The position numbers and the translations under genes were made by a program. A stretch of 64,000 nt of DNA, from NCBI GenBank assembly GCA_958009085.1, contig OY253675.1, positions 186,001 through 250,000 of the forward strand, read 5' to 3'. The notes beneath the pieces were generated by a model, which worked only from the letters and a program-made list of their open reading frames with translations, had not been told where the DNA came from and made no database searches. Shown piece after piece: positions 1,789 to 64,000 of the stretch (position 1 is its first letter; every line of letters begins with the position of its first letter). This DNA comes from Protoeuglena noctilucae. Its lineage: Eukaryota.

Positions 1789-3273
1789 ATGGCGAGCTTC
1801 CGCTACCGGACGAAGGAGCAGCTCATTGCCGACACGCCCAGCAGGCACGCGCGCACGCCCCTGTCTAGCGCCATCCTCCCCTCGTCGCCGCCGCCGCAAC
1901 TCGTGGTTGACGACACTGATGAGAAATCTTGCGGCTTGCGCAGACGGGACGGCATCTCCTGGTACGAGGAGCGGGTTTTGCGGCGGACCATGTGCGAGTT
2001 CACCGTTAAGGTCATGGACGCGCTGCACATGCTGGTTGTCCCAAAGGTCGTCGCACAGGTGTGACTTATGCTTCACGCACGATGCGTTGCCATCGCAAAC
2101 GCAACTGCAGCCCCAACGCTGGCCGCGCAATCGCCCCCCCAGACGCTGGCCCAGCGCTTCTACATGGCGCGGTCTTTCCAGCGGAACGACCGCTTCATCA
2201 TCGCAACGGCATGCATCTTCCTCGCCAGCAAGGTGGGCTGTGATCCCGTGCCGAGGCCTCTTTGCTGCGCTCGATGCATGCGGGCACGCTACAAGTGAAT
2301 TCCCCGCCCCTGCAGTCGGAGGAGAACCACAAGAGCCTGCGTGACGTCATCTTAGCGTCGTTTGACGTGCGCAACGAGGGCGACCAGGAGTTGCGGGAGC
2401 GCATCCGCAAGGACAAGAACCTGTACGACGACATGAAGGCGAGCGAAGCTGAGCGACCCAATGGCGACGGTGATGTATATGCCGACGTGTGTACGGGAAC
2501 CGAGCCGTGCCCATTCCACCCGCAGGAGAACCTGCTGCTGGCGGAGCGGTGTCTGCTCTACATGACGGGGTTCCGCTTCTCGCGCACGCCGCACGAGCTG
2601 CTGCTGGAGGAGCTGCAGGACCTCAACCTCTGGTCGGAGAGCGAGAAGGACCCCCAGGAGGTGCGATGTCATGCGGGATCGAAGCAGCAGTGGGACAGCC
2701 ATGGTGCTGGTCCGGCCGCGGCGCCGCTGTTCGATCGTGTCCAAGCGCTCCGTCGCAGACGCACCGCCGGCAGTTCGTGAGCCAGGTGTCGTGGAACTTC
2801 TGCAACGACTCGACGCGCACGACGCTGTGTCTCCAGTACCCGCCCCTGGCCATCGCCCACGCCTGCCTCTTCCTGGCCATCAAGTGAGGCGCTCTGCGGC
2901 CCCACGTCTCCGGCAACCGACGATCCGGGTTCACCGAGTCACGTGGACGCCGCATCCGTCCTCGCAGGCTCGTGAATTACTCCGCTGCGACCGTGGCCAA
3001 GGCGCAGGCGTGGGTGGAGCAGCGGGGAACGCCTCCAGCGGCGCTGCGGGACATCATTCTGCAGCTGCTTGAGGTGAGTGGCTGCTGCGAGCAAGGCTGC
3101 CGCTGCATGCAAAAGTCGCACGTGTGCTGCGCGGTTTTCTGTGGAGAGCCCAGCGACTTGCACCCTGGCCGCTCCGTCTCCCGCAGTGCTTTGATCACAA
3201 CAACGAGTTGGAAGCGCTCGCGTCGGTCGGGCCGTCCGTAGCTGGCCAGCACGCCCGGTGGCCGTCGGCGTAA
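1789..3273 (+). CDS. Cyclin T/K-family (P-TEFb-type) cyclin, 8 exons
   Basis: Exons 1789-1844, 1944-2058, 2143-2232, 2316-2438, 2526-2660, 2774-2883, 2968-3073, 3187-3273. Motifs TPSRRDGI, AQRFYMARSFQRNDRFIIATACIFLASKSEE, WNFCNDSTRTTLCLQYPP match plant CYCT cyclin boxes. Confidence 0.88.
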
Positions 3274-3383
3274 GCGGGGGCGTGTCAGGATGGCCGAGCG
3301 TGATGAAGACGGCCAGCAGCGCCATCGCATAGTCTCGTTAATGTTCACATTCTCTTCCTCTTCACTACTCGAGGCGCGCAGCG

Positions 3384-6129
3384 ATGTCGCCCAAGCCCGG
3401 GCAGGCAACGGTGAGCTGGTCGAGTCGGTTACGTTTTGCGCCCGTGTCTGCTGGCCGCGTGCTTCGCCCCGGCATGTTGAATCCAAGCGATCCGTCCTCG
3501 CTCGCCTCGCTTCGCACCCGCGGCGACCTCTCCGCGACCAGCTGCACTCGGGTCGCCGCAGCCGGGGACGGACCCCGCCACTGAGCCCCTCTCCGAGCCG
3601 CCGCCGCGCCTGGACCTCCCTCCGGCAGGCACTCTCATCGAGAAACCGCACCTGAGGTATCTGGTCGCCGGCCGCATGCTTTGGAAGGGTCCACAGGGTT
3701 GTAATTTGAAGCGATTCGCTTTTCGGAACCGTCTCCCCTTCCTGAGGCCGCGCCTGCTGCCCCGCAGCATCGTCATCTGCGGTCACGTCGACTCGGGCAA
3801 GTCCACCGCCACGGGCCGCCTCCTGTTCGAGCTCGGCGGCATGCCTTCCCGGGAGCTGGACAAGCTGCGGGCGGAGGCGGAGAGGCGCGGCAAGGCATCC
3901 TTCGCCTTCGCCTTCTTCATGGACCGGCGAGCAGTGCTGACAGGGTTTTTGCAACTTGCCCGTGCATCATCCCCACCCGCGCACCTGTCGCATGCCATGC
4001 GTCGCCGCCACGACGGGCGTGCATCTCACGCGCGCAGGCAGAAGGACGAGCGGGACCGCGGGCTGAACATCTCGTGCACGACTTAGGAGTTCTTCACGGA
4101 CAAGTGGCACTACACTGTCATCGACGCCCCCGGCCACCGCGACTTCATCAAGAACATGATATCCGGTGCGGCACAGGCGGACGTGGCGGTCCTCATGGTC
4201 CCTGCGGATGGCAACTTCACCGTGTCGATCCAGAAGGGAGACCACAAGGCGGGGCTGGTGCAGGCGAGGCCATCGGGGTGCGGTGGGTGCTGGGGTGCGG
4301 TGGGGGCTCAGGTGCGGCAGGGGTGGTGCGGTGGGAGCTAGGGTGCAGCTGTGCGAGTGCTGGGGTAAGGGCTCTGGTGTGGCAGGGGTGGTGCTGTGGG
4401 TGCTACGTGCTGGCAAGGCTGGCATGCTTTCGCATGGCCATTTCACACGCTTCCCATGCAGGGCCAGACGCGCCAGCATGCTCGTTTGATCAACCTGCTG
4501 GGCGTCAAGCAGCTCATCGTGGCAGTGAACAAGATGGACGACAAGGTGGCTGCGCGGTACGACAGGGGGCGGTACGAGGAAGTGCGGGACGAGGTCGTGC
4601 ACATGCTGGTGAGGAAAGGTGGTGGGTGGCTGTGTTTCACATGCTGGTGAGGGCAGGGTGGCACACATGTTGTGGATAGCGAGGCTGGTGTGCGAGCATG
4701 GAATGCTCCTCTAACGCAGCTGCGGATCGGGTACAAGCGCGAGCAAGTGATGGAGCGCACGCCCATCATCCCCATGAGTGGCTGGGTGGGCGACAACTTG
4801 ATCCTCAAGACGACCCGCATGCCGTGGTGCGTCGGCAACAGCGCGCCTACTCAAGCTATCTGCACGCCATGTGTCTGGCAAAGCGTTGGCAAGCATGCCG
4901 CTGCGCAGAGCATGATGCGACGTCATGCAACGCACTATGCAGGTGGGAAGGCGTGGACGTCAAGACCACGTCTGGCCGCCAGGTGCACGTCAGCACGTTG
5001 CTGGAGGCACTGAACGATTTCGTGGAGCTGCCGGACCGCAAGGTGTGCTTGAAGGGTGGACAACATGTTGTGATGGGCACTGCTAGTACTATAGTGCTAA
5101 TGTCGGTGTTGGTGCGAGCCAGGTGCGGAGAGCGTGCTGTGGACACTTCATGCTTTCAGGAGCACGCGCCGATGCGCATGCCAGTGTCTGGCGTGTTCAA
5201 GATCAAGGGCGTGGGCGATGTCATCACGGGCCGCGTGGAGCAGGGGTCGGTGCTGCCGGGAGACGAGGTCGTGTTCGTGCCCACGCACAGCCACACGCAC
5301 CCGTGCGGGGGGAAGGTCTTCACCGGTGAGGGATGACTCGACGATGGGTGAGAAGTGCATCGTGCAATGCTCGAGTACGATCTTTGTTGCATCTCTCTTG
5401 TCATGCTCAGTTGAGGAGCACCACCGTCGATTGGACGCGGCCAGGTCGGGCGACAACGTGGGCGTCAACGTGAAGGGTCTGGACAAGGGTCACATGCCCA
5501 GGGCTGGGGACTGCATGGTGCACAAGGCGAGTGGAGGGCATGCGTGGGTCTGCAGGTAGCGTGGCGGGACTGGGCAGCTGCCCTGCTGCCTGGGTTATGT
5601 CACCACACCTAGCTCCAAACAACGCTCCTCCAATTGTTTTAGAAACCCCTCGCAACATCCAACTCCCTCCATCTCTCCCAGAAGGCCTACGACAGCCACG
5701 GCCTGGGCACGGCCACGCGCTTCACGATGCAGCTGCAGACGCTCGACATCCCCAGCATGGTGCGGCCCGGGTACACGCCCATCGCTTTCTGCCGGACGGC
5801 GCACGCGGCGTGCAAGCTCGTTTCCATCGAGTGGCACATGGGGCGCGACACGGGGGGCAAGAAGGTGGAGGGAGGGACGCACCTGCGGAGCAACGAGGTG
5901 AGAGAGCGAGGGCGTGTTTGAGCCTTGTACCAGATCTATGACGCTCTGTGCCATGACGCTCACTTGCCGACACCCTGCGCCCCAGGTGGCCCAGTGCGTG
6001 TTTGAGCCCCAGTCGCCCTTTGTGGTCGAGACGGCATCCACCTGCGAGGGCCTCTCCCGGGTGGCCATGCTCGATGGCAACACGGCCATCATGCTGGGTA
6101 AGGTCGTCGACGTCCAGTGCGCCTTCTGA
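3384..6129 (+). CDS. EFL: Elongation factor-like (EFL) GTPase, divergent paralog with in-frame TAG at 4084-4086
   Basis: Core exons ..3656, 3769-3926, 4038-4263, 4462-4608, 4720-4825, 4943-5042, 5160-5325, 5411-5526, 5682-5897, 5986-6129. [68 protein letters not shown] and PMSGW are EFL-type signatures. The first exon (3384-3410) is tentative. Confidence 0.9.
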
Positions 6130-6510
6130 TACGGAAGGCCTCGGCCATTCAGGCGTGCTGTTGGTTGATGGTGGGCCTTGTCTCTCATGACGGGCCTGCT
6201 GTCGATGGATGGACGCCCTTCTCTCAGATGGTGGGCCTGCTCGTTGGGTTGTTTGGGAAAGTAAGTCCTTTGGCTCGCTCAGCTGGGCCCACAGTTTGGT
6301 GCATGACGCCCTAGCCATACAAATGTTGAGGTGCAGAGCTAGGGCCATCGCCTGTGTCACGAACTTGCAAGCTGTTTTTTTCCCTTTGTCCACTTCCACT
6401 CACGCCGCCACCGCATCTGCATGTCTGGCTTGCCTGGCTTGTGCATTGATAGGATGTAGGCACTGCTGCTGCACCCCCGCCCCTGCCTCACAGCTGCTGC
6501 TCTGGCAAGA

Positions 6511-6515
6511 TGTAA
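6511..6515 (+). terminator. Chlorophyte-type polyadenylation signal TGTAA downstream of EFL
   Basis: TGTAA lies about 380 nt after the EFL stop. Similar sites occur at 12180-12184 (+), 16266-16270 (+) and 50086-50090 (-), each downstream of a stop codon. Confidence 0.5.
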
Positions 6516-6795: not shown

Positions 6796-7831
6796 TCAGA
6801 ACCGGCCCCGTCCCCTGCCCCTGCCGCGCCCCCGACCCCTCCCGCGCCCCCTGCAAGCGGCTCAGTGGACGACGAACGATCAGCACAACTCATCACAGTT
6901 ATTGACAACGGGACTGAGGGCAGCTGCGGTGGCGCAACGCCTCGACATGCCATGAGCGAGTGCAAAGAAATTTCGTTCGTCCTGATACTCGCCGCAAACA
7001 AGTACATGAAATGCAGAAAGCAACACGCAAGCACAGCACAGGCAGGGCACCTGGTGGGTGCCGCTGCGGCTGCGGCCTTCTCTGGGTGCTTGGGCCTCTG
7101 CTTGGGCTGGTCAATGCCGACGAGCAGCGTGTCGAGGTTGAGCGAGTCGGGGAGGATGACGTAGCGAATGGTGGAGCCCCTGCAGGCAAGGCCAGGGGAG
7201 GGTGGCTGTTGGCCTGGGCTGCGCTGAGAGCCCCCAGTGAAGACGGTGCGAGTGCCGCGCGCGGGCCCGCGTGTGACCCGGCGCGAAGCGAGTTCTTGCC
7301 TTATGCTCATGCTGTCCATCTGCACGGCGTTCTTCCCCTTCGAGACCACCTTCACGGCCTTCATGTGCATGTTCATTGAGTGGTCCACCCCGATGATGGT
7401 GCCCTGCACGGTCGTCGCGTTCTTCAGCTCCACCTGCACCGTCTCATTCGAGAGCTTCATCAAGAACCTGCGCGGGGGGTCGGGGGGCCGGGGCGATCGA
7501 GAGAGCCCGTACTGGACGGCGGGGCAGCCACCCCGCCTCGTAAGAGCGCCCGGAAGGACCGCGAGACGGACATGCGGCTGCTCAGAGAGATGACGCATAC
7601 GGTGGCTCGCGCATCAAAGAGGGAGGCGCGAGGAGGCGCGGCAAATCACGGTCTGCCTACGTGCGCCTCCCCCACCCCGCCAGCGGCGCCAAGGTGCCCA
7701 GGGCCGGGCTCCCGTCGTCGACAACAGCATGCAATCAGATCCAGTACCTCTCAGCGCGACCCGGGACGCGCGCATCCCCTCCAGGAAGCCCCACGCCCGC
7801 ATTTAGGCCCCCACCTGATGAGCTTCACCAT
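6796..7831 (-). CDS. SmD1: Small nuclear ribonucleoprotein Sm D1, 4 exons
   Basis: Exons 7831-7815, 7467-7300 (GC donor), 7179-7051, 6850-6796 give [22 protein letters not shown]...[22 protein letters not shown]...(GR)n F*, including the RG-repeat tail. Confidence 0.95.
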
Positions 7832-8461: not shown

Positions 8462-11400
8462 ATGACGGGCAGCGCCGAGCACGACGCGTCTTGCGCCGTC
8501 GCGGCGGACGCGCATCGAGATAGTGCGCAGGTCGCTCAAGAGGTGACGCATGTAGCTTAGCGCCTGCTGCGCCGAGCTCGGCATTCCTCGCATGAAAGCT
8601 GACCCTGGTGCTTCTCCTCCCGGGCCCGCAGAGCGGCGTCCTCCTCAACCACAAGCGAATGGAAGCCATGCTGGCGAATGCGCTCGACGAGGTTGAGGAC
8701 CTCCGCGCGAAGGCGAGCGGCGCGCGTCGTCCCCAGCGCTCACATCCCGGCCCGCTGCAGCACAACTCGCAAGCCACGCCCGCCTCTGACCCCGCTCGCA
8801 GCTGTCTCTGTCTGAGAAGGAGATCGGGTGCATCCGACCTCAAGCCTTCCACGTTCGGGAGGGCATGAAGCTGGCCCTGGCCCCGCGCATGAGTGCGGGC
8901 GCGGCAGAGCGAGCCCTGGAGGGCCGCCTGCACGAGACGGTGCGCGGCGCTTGCCAAAAAACTTGCGAGCACATGCGTCCATATCCACCTTTGTCAACGA
9001 CAGACCGTGCTTGTGTGCCCCCACAGGCGGCCTCCATGGCTCGCACGTCGGCAGTGCGGGCTCGTGAGGCGTTGGGTACCTGCCTTGTGGAGGCGACGCT
9101 CGACCTGTGTCAATTTGAGTGCGACCGCCTGGAGCGCGCGCGGGATGCGGCGCTGCTGCAGCTGACGAAGACGGCCGCGGTTGCGACGGAGTGGGAGCGG
9201 AGGTGCCGCGATGCACGGCAGGAGGTGGCGACGGCGTCCCAGCGAGCGAAAGAGCAGGCGAGTGCGGGTGGCGATTGGACAGGTTGGGTGACCATGGTCA
9301 GCACGCGGATGCAGAGTGGCACTTGCAAGGCGATGGCTGCAGCAAGTACTCGTGGCAGCGTTCACAGCCAAACGTAAGCTCAGACTGCCTCAGATGCCAG
9401 CTAGTCTGCGACCTGCCTGCGCATCCCTGGCGGCCCTCTCCCAATCTCCCGCAGGGCGCGGAGATACTGAGGTTGGAGAGCGCGCTGCGTGAGGCCAAGG
9501 CTGCGGCGACAGCGGCAGCCGACGAGCATGCGCGAGCTATGGGCGAGGCGGGGGCGGCGCACCGGGCGGCCGCTGATGCGATGCGAGCGGAGGCAGAGGG
9601 GCGGGTGCGGAAGGCGGAGGCGGAGAGGGCGCGGGCGGTGGCGGAGAAGGACGCGGAGCGGCGGGCGGCCGTGGAGGCGCTCGAGGCGAAGCTGCGGTGC
9701 GCGGCGGGGCGTGCTGGGGGGTGTGGGAGGGGCAGGGGTGGAGCAGGTGGTAAAAGGGCAGGGATGGGCGCAAGAAGAGGGTTGTTGACACTAGCAGGAG
9801 CTCCTAGTGTGGGAGGAGAGATGAGGAGGGGTGCGGGGTGCTGTTGGAACATAGCAAGTGCGTGACCATCAAAGTTCATCGGTAGTTGACTTTCGGTGAT
9901 GTCCCTTTCCGGCCACAGGGACGCCGAGCAGCGCTGCGGTGACGCCGAGCAGCGTTGGCGTTTGGCGGAGGAGCGTGCACGTGCGGCCGAGCAGCGTCTG
10001 TCTGACCGGGAGCGCTTCTTGGAGGAGTTCCAGAGGATGGCGAGAGAGAACAAGGGAGCGGAGGCGGAGAGGCTGCAGGAACAGATGAGGGTGAGTGGGT
10101 GGTGGGGACGGGGAGTGGGGTGCATGAGTTGTTGCTGAGAGTGGCGGGTGAGAATTTGTAGGGTGTGTAAAGACAATGGCTGCTGCACGTTGCTTAGCAT
10201 AACTGTGACTTCAGCTCTCCAGCATGTGCATGCCGAGCTGCGATGCGATGCGACGTTCTGACACGTGTGGTGGTGCGCGCAGGTGATGGCTGAAAAGGAG
10301 CACTTGGCAGAGGCGAGGCTGTTGGAGAGAGTGGCAGCGCTGGAGGACAAGCTGCGGTACGAGCACAGGGAGCGGCAAGAGGCGCAGGCGAGGGCCGGGG
10401 TGGCGAACTGTGGCAACCTAGCTAACTGCACTTCAATGGCACGCAGCGATGTAGTGAGCTTTGTTAGGTGCCTTAATGCCCACGGGTGTCGGAGCGTCGA
10501 GAGAAAGACTGTCCATGGATCGTTAGCAGACTCACGTTCTGGTCTCGTGTTTTTTGGGCCCCGTCGCTGCTGACGGCAGGCGCGAGGTCCTATGGCTGTG
10601 TTCGTTAAGCACAGCCATTGCTCCCTCGCAGGACCGCGTGCGTTCGTTGGAGGCGGAGCTGCGGCGGGCGGCGATGGCGAGGGACGCGGAGGTCCACGTG
10701 CTGGCGGCCCAAGTGCGTTCCCAGGACGCTCGGCGAGCATCGATGTTGGATGCGGTGCGCGAGGGCCCCACATCCGAGGCCTTGCGTCCCCAGACCACCC
10801 GGCGCACTTCGGTCCTCAATCCGGCACCGGAGCATGTGCCGGAGCCCCTGCGACCACATGAGGCCCCACGGGGCGTCTCATCCGAGAGTCCCGTCGCCGG
10901 CAACGAGCTGTCGGGTGCGCGGGAGCCCACCAAAGGGGCGCGGGGTGGGTCGGGGGCGCGGCGTGGTGCCGGTCGCCGGAAGGTTTCAGAGAGGCGCGGG
11001 GACAAGGGGGGCAGTGGGGATGTCAGCGATGGGGTGGGAGGCGGTAGGGACGAGGCCGTGGCTGTGGGGCGCAAAGACGAGGGCTCTGCCCGCGGCGGCA
11101 AGCGAGGTGGCGAGCGGGCGGGGTCCGAGAGTGCCGCGGAGGGGACGGCCAATGGCGGTGCCAAGCGGGCGGGGCCCGAGAGCGCTGCGGACGGGGCGGC
11201 GAAACGCAAGAAGAGGAGGGTGGCGCGTTTGGCGAGCCGGGTCGAGGTCGATGAGGAGGATGCTGCGGAGGAGGGAGGCCAAGAGAGCGAACGCGCGGCA
11301 GTGGGAGTGTCCACGGGAGCAGCCGTGGGCGGTCAGGGTGCCAAGGAAGGGTCGCTGCCCAAAGTGATGGAGCGAGTGGTGGAGGAGGAGCTTCCGCGGG

Positions 11401-18136: not shown

Positions 18137-19860
18137 ATGGTGCTCGACGTCCCTTTGACTCCGTGGGAGTCGAAGGCGAAGAAGAGCAAGGTCTGCGTGA
18201 CGGGCGTCACGGGGTATGTCGCCGGGTGAGTGTCTCCGTCCTTGCGTGTCAGGCGTGGCCATCGGCCGATTAGAATCGCGGATAGCACGCACGGATAGCA
18301 CGCGCTCGCAGGCCCATCGTGGAGCGGCTGCTCGCCGCCGGACACACCGTGCACGGCACCGTGCGAAGCGTGAAGGCAGAGGAGCTGGGGAAGGAGCTGC
18401 TGAGCCTGCCCGGCGCGAAGGCGAGGGGTCTTCCGAGTCCTCAGCTCGAACCTGGGGACTGGGAAGCTGCTGCCACAGTCCCACAGTGCCACAGTGATAT
18501 CCTGCGTTCATCCTCTCCCGCAGGAGCGCTTGAAGCTGTTCGAGGCAGACCTCCTCAAGCCCGGCTCTTTCGACGAGGCCATGAAGGGCTGCACGTATGT
18601 GATACACACGGCTATGCCATTCCTCCACACAGTGGCCGGGGGAGAGGGTCGCGCGAAGCTCATCGATCCTGCGCTGCAGGGGACGCGGAACGTCCTCGAG
18701 AGCGTCAACCGGGAGCCGTCGGGTGCGTGAGAGGCCTCGAATGTCGTCATCATTCGATGGATTGGCCGTTGGGCCACATCTGTCGCTCTACGCTCGCAGT
18801 CAAACGCGTGGTCTTGACGTCGAGCATGGCGGCCGTCACGTCGGGGCCAGGGCAGCACCCGGACCGCGAGCGGCATGTGTTTACGGAGGAGGACTGGAGC
18901 GAGATTAATGAGCACGCAATGCCCTACAACTACGCCAAGGTGCCTGAGGCGCTTGAGGGGCGCGGGCCTGGCCCGGCGCTCTATGCCGCGACAGCGAGGA
19001 AGAGGGCTTGTCCAAAACCGAGCGTCACGCCCGCCGTCCTGCTCTGCCGCAGCACCACCAGGAGAAGCTGGCGTGGGAGATGGCGGGCCAGCAGAGCCGG
19101 TGGATGCTCGTGTCGATCAACCCGGGCATGGTGATGGGGCCTTCCCCGACGGACCGCAGCGACTCGACATCCATCAAGCTCTTTTCGGACATGATCACGG
19201 GGAAGCTCCCGTTGGCTCCCGGCGTCGTCTTCGGCTGGTGAGATTTGCTAATGCTTCTTGTTGGCTCTCGTGAGGGTGGCGGATGCTGTCCGTGGTGCAC
19301 AGATGATATGCACTTTTGCAATGAATGTACGCCCCATCATCACTCGCCCGCGCGTGTGCTGCCCGCAGGTCCGACATCCGCTGCGTTGCTGCCGCCCACT
19401 GCATCGCCGCTGTCAACCCGGCGTGTCAGGGAAGGTACATGACTGTGGCCAGCGAGTCCTACACCTTCCTCGACGGTGCACGGTGGATCAAGGCAGGCGA
19501 GTGGGGCGCCCTGACCCTCAGATGCCGGGCTGCCGACCGATTACTGCCGACCGATAAAAATAGCAGTGCCTCTTGGCGAGCATGGGCGATTCTGTTGGTC
19601 CCGCAGTGCTGCCAGACGCGAGGGTACCGATGGGCAAAGCGCCTTACTGGCTCATATGGCTTGTGGGGCCCATGATGGGCGCCAGCAGGATGTTCTTGCG
19701 CCTGTCGTGCTACGACAAGATGCTGATGGACACAGGAAAGATGCAGCGCGACATGGGCTCGGCGTCGTGGTGGATTGACCCGGAGAGGTCTGCGAAGGAT
19801 TTTGCCACGTGGCTGGTCGACACGGGGAAGGTCCCGTACAAGGGCAGGAAGGCGGGGTGA
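18137..19860 (+). CDS. NAD(P)-dependent epimerase/dehydratase (DFR/CCR-like extended SDR), 7 exons
   Basis: VCVTGVTGYVAG Rossmann motif, ERLKLFEADLLKPGSFDEA, GTRNVLES, VVLTSSMAAV, YNYAK (YxxxK), INPGMVMGP. Confidence 0.92.
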
Positions 19861-20588: not shown

Positions 20589-22262
20589 ATGAGAATGCCG
20601 AGCGAGCGTTGGATCCCACCGTGAGGGGTCCGCGCGTGGGTGAGGCGCAGCGGCGAGGCCATCTGCCTTGGTGTCTCTTTCGCTGGACTGTCGCATCACC
20701 CCGCGTGGTCCTGTCGCTTGCGCAGGGTGGGACGATCTGCCTGGAGAGCTGCATCGCGAGATCCTGCGGCTGGTCCCGCTGCGCGACGCCACGGCGGCGC
20801 GGGGGGTGTCGCGGGAGATGCGCGACGAGGTGGACGAGGTGTGGAGGGCGTGGGGCATCCGGGCCACGGCGGAGGACAGGCGGTGGAACACCCCAACCCG
20901 AAACCGCTATATAGACAGGAATTGCAAGCATGATCTCGACTATGGCCCGCTGGTGGTGTATGTGCATGACGGGTCCCATGCGCACCACCTGGCGAGCCTG
21001 GGGCTGTGGTGGCTGGCCATGCTGGTGGCGGAGGGGCCCGACATCAACGGCATGTCATGTGGGGATTTTACCACATATGTACACGGGGCAACGGCATGTC
21101 ATGGGCCGTGCAAGGTTCAGACGTGGATCAGTCACCGCTGATGGTGGCAGTGCGGGCGCGGCAACCGGTGGAGCGCAGGGCGGACGGCAGGGTGGAGTGG
21201 GCGCACGCGCTGGGGGACAAGGAGGTGGCGCGGATGGTGCGGGTGGCGGTGGCTATGGGGGCGGACGTCAACCGGCGGCTGCAGGAAGCGTGGCCGCTGA
21301 TGACGTACTGTGCGGGGGGGGCTGCCTGGAGGCGGTGAAGGCGTGCCTGGCAGCGGGGGCGGAGGTGGATGCGGCAAGCGGCAACAGCTACATGGATTGG
21401 TGGACGGCGTTGGTGCATGCCGGACGGGAGGGTCACGAGGCAGTGGTGGAGGCGCTGCTGGAGGCGGGGGCGTCTGCCAAGGTCGGGCGCGATGGGAGGG
21501 ACGAGACGTTGGGAGCGGTGTGCTGGGGTCGACCAACGCCGGGCATCGTGCGTCGGCTGGTGGAGGCTGGTGCGGACGTGAAAGCAGTAGATGACGATGG
21601 TTATTCAGCCCTGCACAGAGCAGCAATAAGGGGCAACCTGGCCGTCATGGAGGCCCTGGTGGATCTGGGGGCCGAGCTGACTACCACCAGCAATGATGGG
21701 TCCACAGCGATGCACGACGGCGAATGGGGAGGTGGTGCGGTGGCTGATGGCACGTGGGGTAAGCATCCAGGGTGATGGGGTTGACGAGTCCCCGCTGTTG
21801 GGTACCTGCTTTATTGGCCACGTCGACGCCGCCCGCGCTCTGGTGGAGTTGGGGGCGGACGTTCGTTACAGAGGCAGGCAAGGTTTCACGGCTCTCCACT
21901 GGATGGTGTGTTGTGGCAAAGAGGAAGTGGCGCTAGAGATGACCCGGCTGCTGCTGGCGGCAGGGGCGGACGCCAATGCTGCCAATGCACACAATAGGGC
22001 GCCCCTTCACTTTGTCAGGCACGCCGCGTGCGTGGACCTGCTGCTGGACGCGGGGGCAGACCTGGAGGCGCGGGACGAGCTGGGCATGACACCCATTGGC
22101 GTTGCTGCAAGCGACTTCCCGCACACAGCTGAGGCGGTGCTGCGGCTGGCCGACCGCGGCGCGGACCTGGTCAACACGGGCAGGGAGGCGGGGCTGGTGG
22201 ATTGCATAGTGGCGGAGCTGCGGGCCTAGCGGAGCGGTAGCCCGGCTGACCACCCATGCGAG
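20579..22262 (+). pseudogene. F-box + ankyrin-repeat paralog 2, disabled
   Basis: Same intron 1 and F-box (WDDLPGELHREILRLVP) as paralog 1. Lesions: 44-nt insertion at about 21060-21103, short deletions near 21315 and 21717, and CAG>TAG at 22227-22229. Confidence 0.8.
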
Positions 22263-22956: not shown

Positions 22957-25900
22957 ATGCTTACAATCAGGGCGCACGTCGCCCTGCGGGGTCCGGAAAG
23001 GGCCGCTGTTGGGACATCTCGATCCGCGTGTCGCTGCGCCCGCGCTCCTCGCGCCCGCGCGAGCGCCGTGGAGTCCAGCGGGTCCTCCACGCAGTCCGGC
23101 GACAGCTCGTATGTGTCCGCGTACCGCACCGAGGTGACACGGCTTGGACGCGGCCGTTGGGCGGGACTCGGGCCCGGGACGCACGAGGGTGCCTTAGCCC
23201 GCTCAACCGCCCGGGAGCCGCCGCGACGCCCGCCTTACGGTTCCCGCAGGACGTGCTTCGCACCCTTCGCAAGCGGGTGAAGCCGCAGGTCCCGGACGGC
23301 ATGGAGGTGTGGCTGTGGGGCTTGGGGCGTCACATGGGCACGGCCTGTGCGTGGTCCCTCCGCTTCTCCGCGACGGGCGCCTTTCGGGAGGAAATCAGGC
23401 GAGCGCAAGAAGAGCGATGCGTCACCCTTCCGCGGAGAATTGAAGTCCGGTGCCTGGGGACGGGGACGGGATGCCTGAGGTCCTCTTGTTGTCACTGCGA
23501 TGCCCTCAGGTCGAAACATTTCACGACGCGGTGGGGCCACGCGGGTGGCGAGGGCGACCGGTGCTGGGAGGTCGACTCGAGCGGCGTCCCGAAGACGCTA
23601 GAGATGGACGACCACGAGAACATGCTGCTGGTGGCGTGGCTTCGTACGGGCGCCTGGCTCCTGCCTGCCGTGGAGGGCCGGCTGGAGATGGAAGAGCTGT
23701 GTTTCCGGGTCGCGGATCGCGGGTGCGGGCTGTGGTCGAACGGCCTGCCGCAGTCCACTTGGGAGGCCTCGCTTGACGGGGACCTGCTGGGGGGCGGCGT
23801 GCCAGGGGGTGCGGGGGCGGAGGAAGGAGCCAAGGGGGCCGCAGACGACCTCCTGGCGCTCAAGGTGGGGCTAACGTCTGCACGCCTTGTCCGTGCGTCG
23901 CCACTCACCCACGCACCCACCCACCCCGCACGCCTGCGCATCGCCACTCACCCACGCATTCACCCACCCCGCACGCCTGCGCATGTTACCCCGTTCGCAT
24001 GTCACCCCACCCACGTCTCACGCCTGCGGATTGCATAAGACCCCACGCACTCACCTACCTGCCTCGCTCGCCTCTCTCCTCGCAGGTCCGCCTCAAGGGC
24101 AGCCGTCTCTGGGCTTACGTCATGGTGTTGACGACGTCCTGGCTGCCGCGTGGGATCTGCCTGCCGTACGGCTTCGGGGAGTGGTGGGACCTGGTGGACT
24201 GGCGACAGTGGGCCTTTCAGGAGTCGGGGCAGGTGAGGGTGTGGCAGGGGTGCACAGAGACGACGGTGCTCATGTAGAGACTCAGGCTGTGCTGGACTGT
24301 GCTGTGCCTCAGCACGTGAGAGTCTCTGTGTCTCACGTCCACTAGAGCACGTCTCACCATGCATGCTCACATTCGCTGGCATTCACGTCGCCATGCAGGG
24401 AGATGGCGGGGACGATACCCCGGTGCCAGTGACGCTGCGAGTCGATGAGGACGGGGCGAAGACAGGGGGGCGGGGCGTGGGCAGGGGCAGGCGGGCGGGG
24501 GTGGGAGGGGCGGCTGGGGCGGCGGGGGCGGGGGCGGAGGCGAGGCAGCCCCGGGGCATGCGGCGAGGCGAAACGCTGGGTGAGTGACGCGGCGGGGTGC
24601 GACGAGGGGTTCAATCGGTCAAAGAACGGTCAGTGGGGTTTCTCACACTGTCACCCCGCCCTGCCAGCCACCACGGTAGATGTCCTCGCACCCTTCGCTG
24701 CGCTGTTGCTGTGCCCTCACCTATGCCAGGCAGCCTTATCTGTACCAACCGGACCCCACCCGTCCCATCTCATCACCCCTTGTACCCGCACAACCATGAT
24801 CCATCTCACCACCCCTTCCATCCCACGCAGCCATGTCGGCCCCCGGTACCACCCGCCCCCGCACCCCCGGGTCCGTCATCGTGCCGAGCCCCAAAGTCAC
24901 TGAGCACGTTTCGGCGGCGGGTGGAAGGAACACGTACGAGGTGCTGGACGTGCAGCTGGTGGCCGAGGGGACGGGGGACCCCCAGGGGGCGACGAGCGAG
25001 GGGCTCAGGTGAGGTGGCGAGCGGGGGAGACTGTGGTGGGTGCTGTGGATGGCGTGCCAGGTGCCCACGCCGCGGCATTGGATTATCTCGTGTTTGGCTT
25101 AGTCTAATCTCTGCCCAGTGTGACTTTCAACCCCTGTAAGCGCCCACGGTTCTCCGCTCCCACCGCCCTCCCTCGCACCCTCGCACCCTCGTCCCCCCAA
25201 CCGGCCCCGCCCTCCTCCTCACCCCCAGGTCCGTCCCGTTGCCAGTCCTCTCCCCGCCCGACACATCGTTCGAATCGCAGGACGGGCGGTGCGGGTCCCG
25301 CCTTCACGGCTGGGTGACGCCCTCGGGCCATGTGGTGGTGCCCGTGCGCATCAACGGGGAGCTGGTGGGGCACTTCCTGGTCGACACGGGTGAGAGGCGG
25401 TGATGGCTGATTGGTTGCGTTGAAAGGGGAGTGGGTGGGGCACTGCTTGGGGGACACGGGTGGGCGGTGGGCATGGTAGATGCTTGACCAGCCACCGTGC
25501 TCACAGCCAAGGTTTGACGGGTCCATTACACGCTAGCACGCGTGTATGTCACCGCACGCTTACACACGCACCCCTGCCCCGTCCCTGCAGGCGCGAGCGG
25601 GCTGGTGATCGAGCCCAAAGTGGCGCAGCGGCTGAAACTCGAGGCATACGGGGAGATATTCGTGACGGGGATGGGCGGCAACACGCGCAGCCAGTTCCGA
25701 CGTGCGCGGACGCTGCAGGTGCGGGGAACGGTTGCATGGCGAGGGTCCTTTCTTGTGGCATGGGAGAGGACAGCTCGCACAAGGGTGTGGCTCTCCATGC
25801 ACCCTTGCACCTCTCTGCACACCTGCATCCCTGCACCTGGCCCCATCCCCGCACCCTTGCACCTTCCCCGCACTCCTGCACCTGACCCACTCCTGCACCT

Positions 25901-40553: not shown

Positions 40554-41574
40554 TCACACCGACTGCTTGACCGGCACGGCGCTGTCGGCCAGCAAGTCGA
40601 CCACGTCGTTGTAGAAGCTCTTCACCGGCGACTCCTTGTAGGCGATGGCGGCCTCGATCGCATCCTGGAAGGCCTTCACGACGTTGGTGCCGTCCGCGGC
40701 GGAGACGAAATAGAAGGGCAGGTCCCGCTCGGATGCGAACTGGGGCCAGGGAGGGTGCGGGCGTTTGGTGCACGGCAAGCGGGTTGTGCCGCACCATGCC
40801 ATTGCTGGCAGCGAGCGCAAGACACGCCTTGAACGACTTGGTGGTGATGCCGTAGTCCTCGTCAATCTTGTTGGCGACCACGAACGTGGGGACGCCCTTG
40901 CAGTACTCCTGCAGCTCGTCCCACCACGTGCGTAGGTTGTTGTAGGTGACCTTGCGGGTCGCATCGAACACCATGATGCAGGCGTGCGCGCCGTAGTAGT
41001 AGCTCGGGTGCAGCGAGCTGAACTGCTCCTGCCCCGCCGTGTCCCAGATGTCCACCGCCATCTCCGACCCGTCCGCGCGTTTGTGCTTGTGCTGGTACAG
41101 GGTCAGGGCGTACCTGCAGACACGGAACGACAGGCGTGGCTGATAGGCGAACAGGCGGGGGCTTTGAAAACACGGGGCGGGTCCGTAGAGGCGGGGCGGG
41201 GCAGGTCCTGCTCACGTCGACAACGTGTGGGGCTTGTAGCCGTCCATCAGGAAGCGCTCGACCAGCTTTGACTTCCCCACCGCAGAGTCTCCGAGTAGGA
41301 TAATCTTGACCGTGTGCTTGCCCGGCACCAGCGAAGGCTCCTCCTTCCCCGACGTGGACGCTGCGGTGGGGGGCTGGCACGAACGCGTTGTGACACTCAA
41401 GCACGTCGGCACGCGCAGCTCCGCGTGCCACTCGACAACGGAGCGAGTGGGCGCAGGGAGGCGGGCAGGACACGCCGGCGCCCGGCCGAGGCGGGATTCA
41501 AATGGCGACGCTGCTCTCCACCGAGATCCCCCCGCCAGGGGCCCCGGAATGGGCACTGGACACGCAGCCGCCAT
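40554..41574 (-). CDS. RABL2: Rab-like protein 2 (ciliary IFT-B-associated GTPase)
   Basis: VKIILLGDSAVGKSKLVERFLMDGY...LST|YALTLY, WDTAGQE, HPSYYYGAHACIMVFD, RKVTY, VANKID, FVSAADGTNVVK; no C-terminal prenylation Cys. Start codon tentative. Confidence 0.92.
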
Positions 41575-46740: not shown

Positions 46741-47910
46741 CTACCCCGCTGCCAGCAGGTGCGGGTGCGCGTGCCAGAATGCGTCCCTGATGATGTCCTC
46801 GTGCACCACCTCCACCGCGCTCTTCTGCCGCACGATGGGCTCCCCCCGCGAGCTGACCGCGTCCACCGCCCGCGTGACCCGCAGCACCACCGAGCCCCGG
46901 CGAAACATGGCCGGCAGCTCTGCGTAGTTTATCCCAAAGGTGGAGAACAGCAGCTCGTTTTTGAAATCACTCAGCGTCCCCTCCAGCACCTTCTGCGCCT
47001 CTTGCTGCGAGGAGGCAGAGTCGAGATCGTCAGGTCACGACCACACCGCGGCTGACACACGCACGTCACCTACAGGGGCGAGTGGCTGGCAACTGCTCGC
47101 CTTGGTCTTTCCCGACTTGACCAGGCACCAGAAGCACGTGTTGTACAGGTTGTTGATGTGGGTGTCCACCTGCCGCCAGCTCAGGTAGTCCCGGAGCGTC
47201 CGGTCGGAAGGGTACAGCACAGCACGTCCGTCGAACTGGGGAGGGTAGAGCAGCTGCGGGTAACAACAGCGGGCGGGGAGTGTGAGGAAGAGCTGTCAGC
47301 TGCGCTGCTGCAGCTCCAGCACAGGCGCCTGTCCACAGCATGGCGGTGGGACACTGTGAGGGACGCGACATGCAATGCTTGCCTTGCTGTCCGGAAAGAA
47401 CTCGGGCCACAGGAAAACGTACTGCCCCGCGAAGGCGCTGGCGAAGACGCTGACCAGCTTGTACCCACGCCTGCCCCAGAGCTTTGAGTCCTTGCTCAGC
47501 ACGAAGCTGCAGGGGCGGACCGTAAGCTGCTGCTTTCGTAACTGCTCAACAGCGTAGCGAGGCGAGCGGCAGCGTGGGAAAAGATCGTCACCTGTATTCG
47601 TCCGATTCTCCGAATGCGATTCGGATGTCGGGGAACTCCTTGGCAAGCGCCACCGCGCACGCGTTCATCAGGTCGAGCGCCCGCGCGTCGTTGGGCTTCT
47701 CAAAGCCGTGCTCATCGCTGAGAAGGATACTAAGGAGGGTACGGATGAAGTTGTGGACATCGACACGCCGCGGCGGTGCCGAGGGAGGCAGCGGCAGCAC
47801 CTGAAGCGCGTGAAGCCCCGTCCGTCGAGGCGGATGACGACCCAGCATCCCGGGAGCAACGGTACGTCCTGCTCGTAGGCTTTCACGTACTCGTACTGGC
47901 TGTTCGCCAT
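46741..47910 (-). CDS. THG1: tRNA-His guanylyltransferase, 5 exons
   Basis: [98 protein letters not shown]. Confidence 0.96.
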
Positions 47911-50315: not shown

Positions 50316-53300
50316 TCACGCGCCCACCACCTTGGCGGCCAGGTTCAGCTGCTGCTTGCTCATGAGGATGCGCTGGAAGGCGAAGAGGGCGTTGCGCTGC
50401 ACCTCGGGGTCGTGGTGCTCCAGCTTCCTGCGTGGAGAGACAGGCACGAAGAGGTTAAGCATGGTGAAACGAGCACAGACAGGTTAACGGACACAGGCAC
50501 GGGGTCGTGGTGCTCCAGCTTCCTGCGTGGAGAAACGGGCACAGATAGCTTACTTACTAACAAAGACGCAGGCACGGGGTCGTGATATGCTTAAGCTGTA
50601 ATGATCGACATTAGATATTGCTTTCCTTCATCCCACATTCTCGCTACCACCGCCCTCGTCCCCACCACCCACCCTTCCACCCCTCACCTCATCACCACCT
50701 CCTTGGCCCCCAGCTCGTGCGCCAGCTGCCTCCCCTTGGGGTGGTGCTGGATGAACTCGGCCAGGTCGTGGCACCCCACCGCCAGTGTAGTGGCGTCGCT
50801 CGACTGCTCCAGCAGCTTCATCAGGGCGCGGAAGACGAGGTAGTCCTGCGTATAAGGGAAACGGGTCATTGATTCTCCTATCTCCCTCGGCCCATCCTTG
50901 CTATGTTGTCCAGTTGGTCATCCCCACCCCCACCCCGCCCATCCTCGCCTCGTCATCAAAGTGGTTCACTTCTGCAGCCATCACTACGCCACTATTACCA
51001 CCCCCACTCCACTCCCCCACCCCATCCTCGCCTTGTCGTCGAAGTGGTTGACGTTCTGCAGCCAGAACTGCGGCTCGGTGTGGATGGGCGTCCAGGCCAG
51101 GCTCCCCGACAGCACCTCGCGCTTGTACTTGTCGAATGACGACAGCTCATGACCACGCTCCTCCATCTCAGTCCTGGATAGCAGGAGAGATGGGAGCGGT
51201 TGGCGTGAGTGGGGTGGGGGTGGAGGGGAGATGGTGAGTGGGGTGGTGGGCATGGGTGGGCTGGTGGGCATGGTTGGGGTGGAGAGCATGGGTGGGGTGG
51301 TGAGCGTGAATGGGAAGGTGAGCGTGAGTGGGGTGCAAAAGTAGCATAGTGGCACTTGTACTCACTTGAGGTAGTCGAGGGCGTTGGTGATCTCCTCGTC
51401 CCCACACTCCTGCTCCATCTTGGTCGCCACCACCTTCTTCAGGCCAGCCTCCACTGCAAGAACCATGAGAGGGAAAAGGTCAGAAAATCACTCAGCCTCT
51501 ACCAGCCCAGCATCCCTACATTCACTCGCCCATATCCATAGGTGTAAATCATCTTATAACACATAAACACGAATCCACTCGCTCACCCATGGCTTCCAGG
51601 AAGCGGTGGTCCCCGTGCCCCGCCATGCTCTTGAGGGCCAGCACGCACACGCGTGCCACCTTGACGCTCTGGGCATAGCGAAGGAGGTCCACCAGCTTGC
51701 CCACCACGCCCGCCGCCACCTGGGGGGAGACGAAGGCGAACAGGCTCAGTGATTGTTACTATATTAGTAACACAATCGATGGAAAGCGATGCTGGTCCAC
51801 TGGGGCGTGAAAGGTCTGATGAGAGAGGGCAGTTTAACTACCATCTCCAACCAACCAAGCATGCAATAGCACAAGTAGCAAAACTCCCAGCAGCATGAGC
51901 CCCTCACCATGGCCTCGGCTGCCTTCTTGTAGAAGCTGAGCTGCCAGTAGCACATCGACGCCTCGTACTGGAGCTGCACCGACGCCCGCGTCTGGTCGGC
52001 GCGGCGGGGGTTGGCCACGAGGGGCGCCAGCAGCTGCACGACGCCCTTGCGCACGCACAGGTCCCGCGCGTCCACCTCCTTCAGCACCAGCGCCAGGCAG
52101 TGGGCGGCCACGGCGTGAGAGCGCTGGGCGTCTGTGGGGCGCCTGGGGAGGGGGCGGGGGGTGTGGGGATGGGATGGGGGAGTGTGGGGAGGTGACGGGG
52201 GGTGCGGAGGGATGCGTGGGACATGCGGGGAGGCGGCAGGGTGCAGTGTACGGGTGCACCGCCCACGAGCCAACGCGAACACTAGGTCAGGAGGGGCAGC
52301 TATGACACGGGCGAGAGCCGGCGCATAAGTTTGCAAACAACTTGCCTCAATTGGTTGGCCACGAAGTCCACGAACGCAGACAGGACGGCGTCCGGCAACG
52401 CGCTCTTCACTTCCGAGGACGTGGACGCGCCCGAAATGAGGTCCGTGCTCGCGGGGCCCGAGAGAGGGACCGTGCGGTCCGGGCGCGTGTCGATCAGGAT
52501 CGCGAGGACTGCAGGGACGAGGGAGCGGCGGCGGGCGTGGATCGCGCGATGGGCGGAGGGGCCAGCCAGTGCATCTCCGCAAGCCGCTCGCCCCGCCGCG
52601 CACCGACGGCCGCCAGCTCCTGGGTGGTCCAGTCGGCCCGCTGCAGGAGCTTCAGGAGCTGCGTGTACGGGTTGAGCGACGACAGCGCGTGCACGTAGCT
52701 CGCGTGCGCGTGCGTCCCCGACGGCGCCATCTCCAGCATCTCCCGCAGCAGCGCCAGCGTGTACTGCACCGTCTCCTCCTTGGTCACATTGCGCAGCACG
52801 TTGAAAAAGGTCTCGACATACGCCTTGCCGTCCTGCGGGAACCAGGGACGGAGGTGGAGGAGGCGCAAACGGACCATGACCCCGCCCGTGCCAATCGGCG
52901 ATGGCCGCGCCCCCGGCACGTCATCCGGAAAACGGAAGTTCGTTCCTCAATTCCACGGAAATCCACGGGCGCCCAGAAAAAACGCCCTCCAAGCCATCGC
53001 GCACGCAAACGCACGCTGCGAGGGGTCTGCTCGGCCCTGCGCACCTTCGCCAGGACGTCCGCCTTGGTCACGGGGTTCTTCTTGTCGTATCTCCGGATGC
53101 GCTCCAGGTCCCGATCCGTGATGAGCCGCGCCTGCATGTAGGTCTCCCACGGGACATCGCGCTCGAGGACCTTGAGGTAGGAGCCTGCGGGAGGGTGGGG
53201 GCCGCGCGGGGCAGTCAGGGCGATGTCGGGGAGGGTTCTCTAGCGGATTACGTCCGCCGCTGGGCCGGCGCGGCGCGGGCGCGGCAGCGCGAGCGAGGTT

Positions 53301-60807: not shown

Positions 60808-61308
60808 GTGAATACTCCCGACGCACTGCGGAGGATCCGCCCTGCGGCCAAAGAACGTCCCTGCGGCCCGTTGCCAAGTGGACGTCGCGAGCCAGGCGAC
60901 CGCAGGCCCGCTGGCGACCCGAGCTCCTATCGCTTACCGTGGTACTGACGTCGCTCTCTAGAAATCTCGCTTGCGAATCGCGCTGTCCTCCTAGGGCGCG
61001 CGGAGGCCGCAGAAGAAGTCTGGCAGGCGTGAAACGACGATCTCAGCCGAACAGAAACTCGCACTGCGCTTGCATTGTACCAGATGAACAGGCAGGCAAC
61101 AGAGTCAACAGGCGGCAGCCTCACATGAAGCAGAGCAGCTTTTCTGACGTGACTGTTGCCAGCGTCTTGGATTCCTTCCCAACCAGCGCCTCCCTTCGGC
61201 GCCCTGCATTCCGCTCGACATTGTCGAACTGCGAGTCGCCTTGAATCGGTCTCGACTCGACCCATCGCCCCCGTCTCCGCGCGCGGAGCCCACGCGTCGC
61301 TCGCGGCC

Positions 61309-64000
61309 ATGAGCCCCCCGGACGAGCCGCCTCCGGACGGCTTCGAGCCCGATGTCGTCGTGGAAGGGAAGCTACGGAGCGAGCAAGTCAACGCAGCGTC
61401 CGAGCGGGGCAACGTGGACGCCATGGACAAGCTGCAGGCCGACCTCGGCTTCGACTTCCAGCCAGAGGCGAGGGCGCCGGCGGCCCACGGACGCCCCCGT
61501 CGTGCGTGCGCAAGCATGCATGAGAACGCGAGCATACTTGCGGATGGGTCCCGGACGCGTCGGGGGGCCGGAGACGTTTCCGCGGTGCGTCCCGCCCCGC
61601 CGTTTCGAACGCGTAGCGTCGCCCTGCTGTGCTACAGGCGCAGCGCCCGCCATGGACGCTCGGCAAGTGGTTTCGGTGCCTGAGCAACGCTCTGACGGGA
61701 CTCAACAAAACGCTCGTCGCCGGGGATCTGCCCAACGACGGGGCGGGTGCGCATGCGCAGGGTGGCACGTGTCCGCTGCGCCCGCCACGGCCGCGCGGCC
61801 CCCCGTCACGCCGCCGCACTTGCTTGCAGATATCGATCACGAGAAGCTCGTCGGGTGGATGCGCGACCACCTCATGAAGCGCCTCAACGCGCTGAAGGTC
61901 GTGTACGCGGTGGGGGGCGGGTGGACGAATGACGCGCGCATCTGGGTGGAGATTTCGGAGCCCAACACACCGGAGCCCTGCCAGTCGGGCCCGCTGCGGG
62001 GCCTTTACCAGTGCTTCCCGTCCGTCTCCATCTGTCCAAAGACCGGTGAGGCGTTTGCCTGCGTAATTCAGCCGTCCCCTGCCTTTGACACGCTCGCGCG
62101 CAGGACCAATCGATGACCGCGATGTTGTATTACTTCATCCGTCCCGTCCCGCGCCGCAGGGAATCTGTCCAAGCTGGCCGTGCCGCGCAAGGTGCACCCG
62201 GACGTCGCCCGCAAAGCTGCCGACGCGATTAAGCGCAAGATTGAGACGGGAGAGGACACAGGTGCGGCGCCGCAGTCGCTGAGAGGCCTCTCGGCGCGCG
62301 CGCATCCCCAGCCTGCACCGACGCCCGTGCTGGCAGCTGCGGGGCACAGCACGCGACCTGCACCACACCCTGGCCGTCCCTAACCCTCACCACACACATT
62401 CCAGGCTCCACCTGCGGGCCATGAGCATCACAAGTCACAAGAACCACAGTAAGAAAGCCAGTCAACCCCCGCTGTGATGTCAGCTTCTGCGTGCCCTGCC
62501 GCAGTGATCGTCAAGCGCGACCGGGGCGTGGGCTACAAGGAGCGAACGGAGCACATGCTGGCCGCGATGGACGTCCGGCACCTGTCGTTCGTGCGTTCCG
62601 GGGCGCGTGCTGCGCCTGGATTGAAGGACGCTGCACAGGGCAGCGGCGGGCGCGTGCGTGGCGGCGATGGGGCAGACCAGGAGTTGGCGGAGGCTCAGTC
62701 TGTGGTCGACACTGGGATGGAGGCGCTGACGGTGGAGGATGGGCCGGGAGCGACGGTGCGTGCGGGGGAGGGGAATGTGTGGGGGTAGGGGCAGTGTGGG
62801 GTGCAGGGGCTTGTGTGGCAGGTCTTTTGTTTTGCAAACGTCTTACGTCTCATGCGATGTGCTCCCCATGGCGTCTCCATGCCCGCAACCCCCGCAGTCC
62901 GACGAGCCGTCCTGCAACAGGCGCCCGGACAGCAAGGGAGCCTGGGGCGGTGGCGATGGCGCGGTGTGCGGGGAGCTCACCATCCCAAGCGACAAGGACG
63001 CACACAGGGACTCACACAAAGACTCAAACAGGGACTTACACAGGGATGCACACCGCGGCGCTGCCGGGGCTGGCGCGCACGATGGGGCGGTGTCGACCGC
63101 GACCCCCGCCGCCCCCGCCGCGCCCGTCGCACCTGCCCGGGAGGAGCGGACGCACGCCCCGCCGTCACTCGGTGCCGCCACCAGTGATGCGGACGCCGAC
63201 CACGCCTCGCCGGAGCTCCCGGAGCTCAAGAAGCGGCGCATGCCGGACGGGGCGCCACAAGCGTCATGCTCTGTGCCTGAGAGGGACGCGGCGGGGGCGC
63301 CACGGCCGCCGCTGCAGGCCATCCAGGTGCGGCAGAGGTAGTTTATTGGCAGAGATGGTCACTGAGAGTGTCCCTGCGATGGGTTCTGGCAAGAACCTGC
63401 TCTCTCACCAACGCTCAGTCTCACTCCAGCCCTTCTCCCCGCAGCCGTCTGCGTCCGAGGCCCCCGGCAACGTGGTGCGCGCGCGGGGCGTGACCATGTA
63501 CGTGGGCCCTTCACGTGTGCCCGCGCCCAGCGCCCCCACGTCCCGGCAGGAGCTGGCGGGGAGCCACGGGGCCACGATGTGGGTGCGGGGCCGCCCCGGC
63601 TCAGCGGCGAACGAGGTGGGTTGCACAGAGATAGCATTCACATGGTTGGGGCACGGTACAATCCATGCGCATGGGAGCGCTCCCGTGCTGCTGTGTCCAA
63701 CCTGGTCAGGCGTCGTCATCAACGTCCCCATCTCTACGTCCGTTTGGCCCAGCCATACTGTCTCTGTCTCTCGTGCCGTCTCTTTACCATTGATGACCAT
63801 CAACGATCGATGACATCGGCACGTGCCCCTTGCAGGCCTGCCGCCCAGAGGGCATGGATGTGGACGCAGCACCCGCGGCGAAGAAGGGGCCGGAGCTGAA
63901 GACGGAAGAGGAGGCGAGGGCCGCGGCTGATGGTGGCAGGCCGCGCGTTGTGCGTATGTGTGCACGCCGAACCCCTCATGCACACTCGCCATGTCCTCAT
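61309..64000 (+). CDS. Hypothetical multi-exon protein (continues past the right edge)
   Basis: Phase-consistent exons MSPPDEPP..FQPE|AQRPPWTLGKW..|DIDHEKLVGW..CPKT|GNLSKL..|VIVKRDRG..|SDEPS..|PSASE..|ACRPE..EEE|gcgagg. No family recognised. Confidence 0.6.

Follow-up and report, generated by a model that had tools for sequence, protein, structure and literature searches.

GC-AG introns are real and make up roughly three in ten of the introns in a 64-kilobase (kb) stretch of the Protoeuglena noctilucae genome assembly (contig OY253675.1, positions 186,001 to 250,000). This whole stretch of 64,000 nucleotides (nt) is called the window below, and positions are counted from its first letter. Across 22 gene segments in the window, 27 of 83 introns (33%) begin with GC, with a Wilson interval, by our own arithmetic, of about 23-43%. 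If all five of the weak GC calls listed below are really GT, the share drops to 22 of 83 (27%), so that the range is 27-33%. We think it probable that these are ordinary introns of the major (U2-type) spliceosome in which the mismatch of a C at donor position +2 is offset by a strong consensus at the rest of the site, and that they accumulate under pressure toward high G+C content.

Introns were placed in two ways. A purpose-written spliced protein-to-genome aligner had selectable donor dinucleotides and used no splice-site weight matrix, while an ab initio parser combined a codon log-odds model with donor and acceptor matrices and left donor position +2 unscored; AG acceptors were imposed by both. 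The parser was trained on 23 homology-fixed introns from the genes for a cyclin, GMP synthase and V-ATPase subunit H, and the tally of 83 consists of these 23 together with 60 introns that the parser placed in 19 further gene segments (20 of the 60 being GC). On its own training set the parser recovered 21 of the 23 introns, missed one, which was GMP synthase intron 1 (54055), and made one false GC call, at 52591 instead of the GT donor at 52603, with a margin of 2.4 nats. The true GC site at 1845 is also invisible to it. For GC donors we report delta, the margin in nats of the parser for each GC donor over the best path without that donor; for the known true GC calls it amounts to 10-13 nats.

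Eleven of the 27 GC donors are established by comparison with homologous protein sequences, in the genes for cyclin, GMP synthase, V-ATPase subunit H, THG1, SmD1 and a dihydroflavonol-reductase-like SDR protein. They are the following, all of them GC-AG, with a slash at the boundary between exon and intron and the supporting comparison at the end of the line.

1845..1943, + strand: cyclin intron 1, cag/GCACGC, spliced alignment to P0136
2439..2525, + strand: cyclin intron 4, aag/GCGAGC, spliced alignment to P0136
54055..54138, + strand: GMP synthase intron 1, atg/GCGAGG, spliced alignment to P0007
54208..54322, + strand: GMP synthase intron 2, aag/GCGAGC, P0003 and P0007
54888..55100, + strand: GMP synthase intron 4, cag/GCGAGG, P0003 and P0007
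50846..51031, - strand: V-ATPase subunit H intron, aag/GCGAGG, 10 of 10 homologs
52143..52345, - strand: V-ATPase subunit H intron, gag/GCAAGT, 9 of 10 homologs
47254..47382, - strand: THG1 intron 3, aag/GCAAGC, 24 of 28 homologous open reading frames (ORFs), delta 15.1
47005..47100, - strand: THG1 intron 4, aag/GCGAGC, 14 of 28 ORFs, delta 12.4
7180..7299, - strand: SmD1 intron 2, aag/GCAAGA, PDB chain 8xi2_c, delta 13.5
18421..18523, + strand: SDR intron 2, aag/GCGAGG, PDB chains, delta 18.7

The cyclin gene was compared with P0136, a protein of 278 amino acids that forms an uninterrupted reading frame on a contig of 1077 nt. The two align over 278 of 278 codons without an indel, and with all 276 unsplit codons identical, across seven introns of which two are GC. 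An indel-free alignment requires the junction at 1845, and a model of the gene restricted to GT donors scores 106 units lower and has to insert 11 codons. Three of the eight GMP synthase introns are GC, and forbidding GC in that gene leads to a loss of 112-141 score units. For THG1, where the comparison set is 28 ORFs from metagenome loci, alternative placements of the donor at 47100 were chosen by three and five of the 28; the Pfam Thg1C profile runs continuously over this junction, with positions 2-34 in exon 4 (one residue remaining) and 36-115 in exon 5. Against PDB chain 8xi2_c, SmD1 exon 2 corresponds to residues 7-61 and exon 3 to residues 63-92, with the split codon at residue 62. The SDR exons 2 and 3, joined from the donor at 18421, abut at residues 55/56 of 9m3k_A and 70/71 of 8fem_A. 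The five genes that were tested whole by homology contain 29 introns, 10 of them GC-AG.

The window has 7470 GC dinucleotides, twice the number of GT (3571), and controls against chance were therefore needed. When eight alternative dinucleotides were tried in the homology aligner, the score rose most with GC in nine of nine protein-gene tests. When the parser was allowed GT, GC, GA and GG equally, again with +2 unscored, it picked GT 51 times, GC 26 times, GG four times and GA once (n=82). The coding strand has about as many GC as GG dinucleotides (3307 versus 3126), and the binomial probability of 26 against four picks is p=7e-5. A count that is independent of any gene model was also made: within gene spans the heptamer AGGCGAG has 20 sense-strand occurrences, of which 16 are used as donors, and four antisense ones (p=0.0015), while AGGTGAG occurs 14 and five times, respectively. 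The excess of GC donors is beyond what chance would give. GA and GG were considered as further donors and rejected on the same picks, GA being at the level of false picks seen for GG.

The remaining 16 GC donors are without homology support and were called ab initio. Nine of them have strong margins (8.2-14.7), two have moderate ones (5.3-5.4) and five have weak ones (2.1-3.2), as follows, all again GC-AG.

294..403, - strand: intron of an incomplete gene at the start of the window, aag/GCGAGA, delta 11.3
3927..4037, + strand: EFL-like GTPase intron, ccg/GCGAGC, delta 12.7 over the best GT path
4264..4461, + strand: EFL-like GTPase intron, cag/GCGAGG, delta 8.3
5527..5681, + strand: EFL-like GTPase intron, aag/GCGAGT, delta 9.1
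8713..8801, + strand: coiled-coil gene intron, aag/GCGAGC, ab initio only, delta 14.7
9258..9454, + strand: coiled-coil gene intron, cag/GCGAGT, ab initio only, delta 8.2
10388..10631, + strand: coiled-coil gene intron, cag/GCGAGG, ab initio only, delta 9.7
23399..23509, + strand: intron of a gene without a name, cag/GCGAGC, delta 10.0
61468..61637, + strand: intron 1 of the "Dabb" gene, gag/GCGAGG, delta 10.3
19497..19606, + strand: SDR intron 6, cag/GCGAGT, moderate, delta 5.3
34151..34319, - strand: protein kinase intron 4, cag/GCGAGT, moderate, delta 5.4
501..588, - strand: weak call, cag/GCACTG, delta 2.4, equal to that of the known false call
21050..21150, + strand: weak call in the second F-box/ankyrin copy, acg/GCATGT, delta 3.0
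28335..28767, + strand: weak call, gtg/GCGAGC, delta 2.1
29595..29890, + strand: weak call, cgg/GCGAGG, delta 2.2
40740..40827, - strand: weak call in a Rab-like GTPase gene, aag/GCGTGT, delta 3.2, with a GT alternative at 40794

In the protein kinase gene, the path restricted to GT donors drops an exon of 34 amino acids that covers about positions 157-177 of the Pkinase profile. At the Rab-like junction (40827), the PDB matches of the two flanking exons fall on different chains. The EFL-like gene was compared with 20 homologs, all distant, and their votes were divided between GC donors and neighboring GT sites: two for GC 3927 and two for GT 3934, five for GC 4264 and one for GT 4258, and four for GC 5527 and six for GT 5518, the last of which has an A at +5. 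Comparisons of this gene with the PDB do not discriminate GC from GT junctions. Its C-terminal exon found no relative in a metagenome scan, and in a search of 1.84 billion representatives its best relatives were at most 56% identical and mostly fragments, which marks the gene as unusually divergent.

Two other features of the EFL-like gene were observed. Exon 2 contains an in-frame TAG at 4084-4086 (+ strand), inside the conserved GTPase region, while the other exons are open and have a G+C content at third codon positions of about 0.9; the gene could be a recent pseudogene, or the TAG could be a sequence error or be read through. The intron at 4264-4461 consists mostly of imperfect G-rich tandem units, and has three blastn matches, some of them elsewhere in the window.

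A preliminary description of the window had proposed that about one third of its introns are GC-AG, and our independent window-wide count of 27 of 83 bears this out. All ten of the sites it gave as examples (1845, 2439, 3927, 4264, 5527, 7299, 18421, 54055, 54208 and 54888) are GC donors in the new models, and 11 GC donors prove to be fixed by conserved protein sequence, as it had claimed of many. The tallies for individual genes are also the same for cyclin (2 of 7), GMP synthase (3 of 8), THG1 (2 of 4), SDR (2 of 6) and the "Dabb" gene (1 of 4). Four genes were analysed only in part, so that our counts for the EFL-like gene (3 of 8), the coiled-coil gene (3 of 6), the kinase (1 of 4) and SmD1 (1 of 2) stand beside earlier ones of 3 of 10, 4 of 8, 1 of 5 and 1 of 3, respectively. 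V-ATPase subunit H, which was absent from the earlier tally, adds two GC introns out of eight. Donors lacking the exonic AG were found where they had been described, as ccg/GCGAGC at 3927 and atg/GCGAGG at 54055.

The GC donors follow the U2-type consensus at the remaining positions of the 5' splice site, and they do so more strictly than the GT donors. Twenty of the 27 read GCGAG, and 16 of the 27 read AG/GCGAG. Scored for matches to A at -2, G at -1, a purine at +3, A at +4 and G at +5, GC donors average 4.63 of five and GT donors 3.93 (p=1e-5); in the donor set taken from homology only, with no position weight matrix (PWM) involved, the averages are 4.71 and 4.12 (p=0.02). The two types of donor differ most plainly in A at +4 (23 of 27 GC donors versus 33 of 56 GT donors), A at -2 (22 of 27 versus 29 of 56) and C at +4 (2 of 27 versus 17 of 56), while G at +5 is shared by all 23 homology-fixed donors. 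The GT donors (for example those at 54601, 52603 and 53044) include two classes, GTGAG (29 donors) and GTGCG (15 of 56), and GC counterparts exist only for the GTGAG-like class: GCGCG is used as a donor at none of its 95 occurrences, GTGCG 15 times. The rule observed is that a donor with C at +2 is accepted when +4 is A but practically never when +4 is C.

GC donors are more often in phase 0 than GT donors (18 of 27 versus 22 of 56, p=0.03), which fits a need for the exonic AG, as supplied by NAG codons. Intron length is similar for the two donor types, with medians of 115 nt (GC) and 117 nt (GT). The share of C among pyrimidines falls from 0.911 at two-fold NNY third codon positions to 0.60 in intron interiors and then to 0.325 at donor +2. 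By our own arithmetic, the odds of C to T at donor +2 (27:56) are about three-fold lower than in intron interiors (3182:2120); T is still favoured at donor +2, by an odds ratio of only about three. U12-type introns were looked for and rejected, with none of the 83 having a U12-like donor (/ATCC) or branch-site motif (TCCTTAAC).

It is therefore reasonable to regard the +2 mismatch as compensated, given the stricter consensus of GC donors (AG/GCGAG or AG/GCAAG). The mechanism that we favour would involve U2-type introns in which C replaces U at +2 of the 5' splice site, the single mismatch to conventional U1 and U6 being offset by full pairing at -2, -1, +4 and +5. Persistent T-to-C pressure would convert the GT of donors to GC at sites that are otherwise strong, where the change costs little, and GC-AG introns might in this way build up to about three in ten through the combination of GC pressure and weak selection.

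Several points weigh against this account or against the share on which it is built. The share is that of a single 64-kb window rather than of a whole genome, and 60 of the 83 introns come from an ab initio parser whose training set was 23 introns from this very window. Support at the level of transcripts is confined to the two cyclin junctions, by way of a protein predicted from a contig (P0136). Five GC calls have margins essentially no larger than that of the parser's known false call, and the three GC sites of the EFL-like gene have GT alternatives 6-9 nt away from which distant homologs do not distinguish them. The compensation statistics are partly circular for the ab initio sites, as the PWM of the parser rewards the consensus. 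Finally, GC pressure alone is too little to account for the share, as genomes of similar G+C content have 2.7-7.7% GC-AG introns (PMC3033335). GC pressure must be joined by some lineage-specific tolerance or by weak selection, and tolerance above the level explained by G+C content alone makes a lineage-specific factor possible.

The alternative that survives best is a change in the splicing machinery itself, in the 5' end of U1, the ACAGAGA box of U6, U1-C, Prp8 or an RNA modification, such that C at +2 would be nearly as good as U. In its favor are the odds of C to T at +2, just about three-fold under those of intron interiors, and the share of about 30%, which is far above those of green algae with similar G+C content (2.7% in Micromonas RCC299 and 7.7% in Chlorella sp.; PMC3033335). 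In the same paper the origin of abundant GC-AG introns is termed an enigma, with base modification or proteins of the U1 small nuclear ribonucleoprotein (snRNP) suggested as the cause. On the other side, the GC donors are stricter than the GT donors and avoid C at +4, so that C at +2 still has some cost. Were the U1 base opposite +2 a G, pairing should be better with C than with U, and compensation would then be expected in the GT donors instead. The canonical 11-mer, moreover, is present at the 5' end of the putative U1 in both Aureococcus and M. pusilla (PMC3033335). Altered machinery is on these grounds an unlikely explanation here. We assign about the same low probability to a lineage-specific relaxation at +2, through a U1 snRNP protein, Prp8, U6 or modification of a small nuclear RNA (snRNA), under which C would be nearly neutral provided that +4 is A. 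The preliminary description had spoken of relaxed or altered recognition of the 5' splice site: C at +2 is indeed tolerated, much more readily than in the majority of eukaryotes and at odds reduced about three-fold, while a change in U1 or U6 finds no support in the window and the compensation leans against it.

We also considered the possibility that the GC donors are artefacts of gene modeling in GC-rich DNA, the true donors being nearby GT sites. The abundance of GC dinucleotides (7470, to 3571 for GT), the one false call of the parser (52591 for GT 52603), the five marginal calls and the GT sites 6-9 nt from the EFL-like donors would all be in keeping with this. Homology establishes 11 of the GC donors, however, two of them through an intron-free protein that is 100% identical; GG, which is equally common, was picked four times to 26 for GC; AGGCGAG is found 20 times in sense and four times in antisense; and the GT alternatives in the EFL-like gene lack the G at +5 that all 23 homology-fixed donors possess. 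An artefact is therefore very improbable.

M. pusilla carries introner elements, and the GC-AG introns of the window might by analogy be copies of a mobile intron family with a GC donor. M. pusilla is also among the genomes rich in GC-AG introns (22.2%, PMC3033335), but an all-against-all blastn of the 83 introns gave six weak, short pairs (16-58 nt) and no family, the median lengths of GC and GT introns are alike (115 and 117 nt), and the GC introns are not copies of one element, which leaves this explanation with hardly any credibility.

A high share of GC-AG introns is, as a phenomenon, already in print, and the window adds an intron-rich green alga to the few genomes known to be rich in such introns. 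In human and plants, GC-AG introns have a stricter donor consensus than GT introns. Such U2-type introns of animals and plants have the same termini as those described here, with the rest of the 5' site on the U2-type consensus; they differ in that GC-AG introns are about 25 times more frequent here, and in that the consensus here is GCGAG, with G at +3, and GCAAGT there. In a survey of 2.46 million introns from 61 species of animals, fungi, plants and protists, GC-AG introns made up 1.3% (Iwata & Gotoh 2011, PMC3033335). The same source gives shares of 39.6% in Aureococcus anophagefferens, 22.2% in Micromonas pusilla and 7.7% in Chlorella sp., with 2.7% in Micromonas RCC299 at 64% G+C, describes GC-AG introns as extraordinarily abundant in species of high G+C content, and reports a canonical putative U1 5' end for Aureococcus and M. 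pusilla. For Aureococcus, 14-17% is given in a pelagophyte preprint (10.1101/2024.10.30.620910). Emiliania huxleyi has 56% GC-AG among 241 curated junctions, with nine GC junctions verified by reverse transcription-polymerase chain reaction, while its largely ab initio gene models show the opposite ratio of GC to GT, about 20/80, a discrepancy blamed on mispredictions (Feldmesser et al. 2014, PMC4028052).

The P. noctilucae window is like Emiliania, Aureococcus, M. pusilla and Chlorella sp. in its GC-rich DNA, large minority of GC donors, AG acceptors and short introns, and the published explanation in terms of G+C content agrees with the direction of the effect here. It differs from these GC-AG-rich algae in being intron-rich and in coming from a separate green alga. 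The share of about 30% is higher than the published green-algal shares that were found (22.2% and 7.7%), which refer to genomes while ours refers to a 64-kb window; no green alga above 22.2% was found in the literature searched on GC-AG introns. Non-GT donors are also abundant in dinoflagellates, where GC and GA donors are both common, whereas GA donors are not used here (1 of 82 picks).

The window has a G+C content of 0.60-0.69 per 4 kb, about 65% in all, rising to about 0.9 at third codon positions of exons, and is eukaryotic nuclear DNA. It holds at least 22 intron-bearing gene segments, and the genes fixed by homology are intron-rich, with 7-8 introns each. Pfam naming, done on 101 stop-free ORFs, identified a cyclin, an EF-1alpha-like GTPase, SmD1, an SDR, a kinase, a pseudouridine synthase, a Rab-like GTPase, TFIIIC Tau95, THG1, V-ATPase H, GMP synthase and a D27-like carotenoid isomerase, plus others. 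An Rfam scan of the 64 kb gave no matches, so that no snRNA lies inside the window. In a search of sequencing runs, three marine metatranscriptomes contained 0.22-0.24 of the words sampled from positions 1-10000 and DNA runs 1.00, shares from which nothing about splicing is concluded. The closest named relatives of the GMP synthase are from green algae, and a single-gene tree places it among core Chlorophyta; its near relatives in the tree are environmental sequences only, P0003 being 84% identical over 497 columns. The gene for a D27-like beta-carotene isomerase (57927-58367, - strand) points to a plastid-bearing organism. The Rab-like small GTPase gene lies at 40557-41358 (- strand). A gene with an F-box and ankyrin repeats is present in two tandem copies about 6.5 kb apart, at 14223-15791 and 20644-22226 (both + strand); the first copy is a single open frame of 523 amino acids, and the second, which is broken across several frames, may have degenerated or may contain introns. 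Two stretches, 8001-16000 and 20001-24000, have a strongly positive GC skew (0.15-0.18), whereas the skew is near zero elsewhere in the window. A region of about 3.3 kb (29950-33280), with a G+C content of 0.67-0.69, has no segment with coding periodicity on either strand.

In practical terms, gene finders that prefer GT would mis-model about three in ten of the introns here, and annotation should permit AG/GCRAG donors. The rule that links positions +2 and +4 bears on the trade-off between the strength of U1 and U6 pairing and GC substitution pressure. If recognition of +2 does prove to be relaxed in this lineage, P. noctilucae would offer an intron-rich and perhaps tractable system in which to search for the factor behind the discrimination between GT and GC, which is the "enigma" that was left for Aureococcus and Micromonas.

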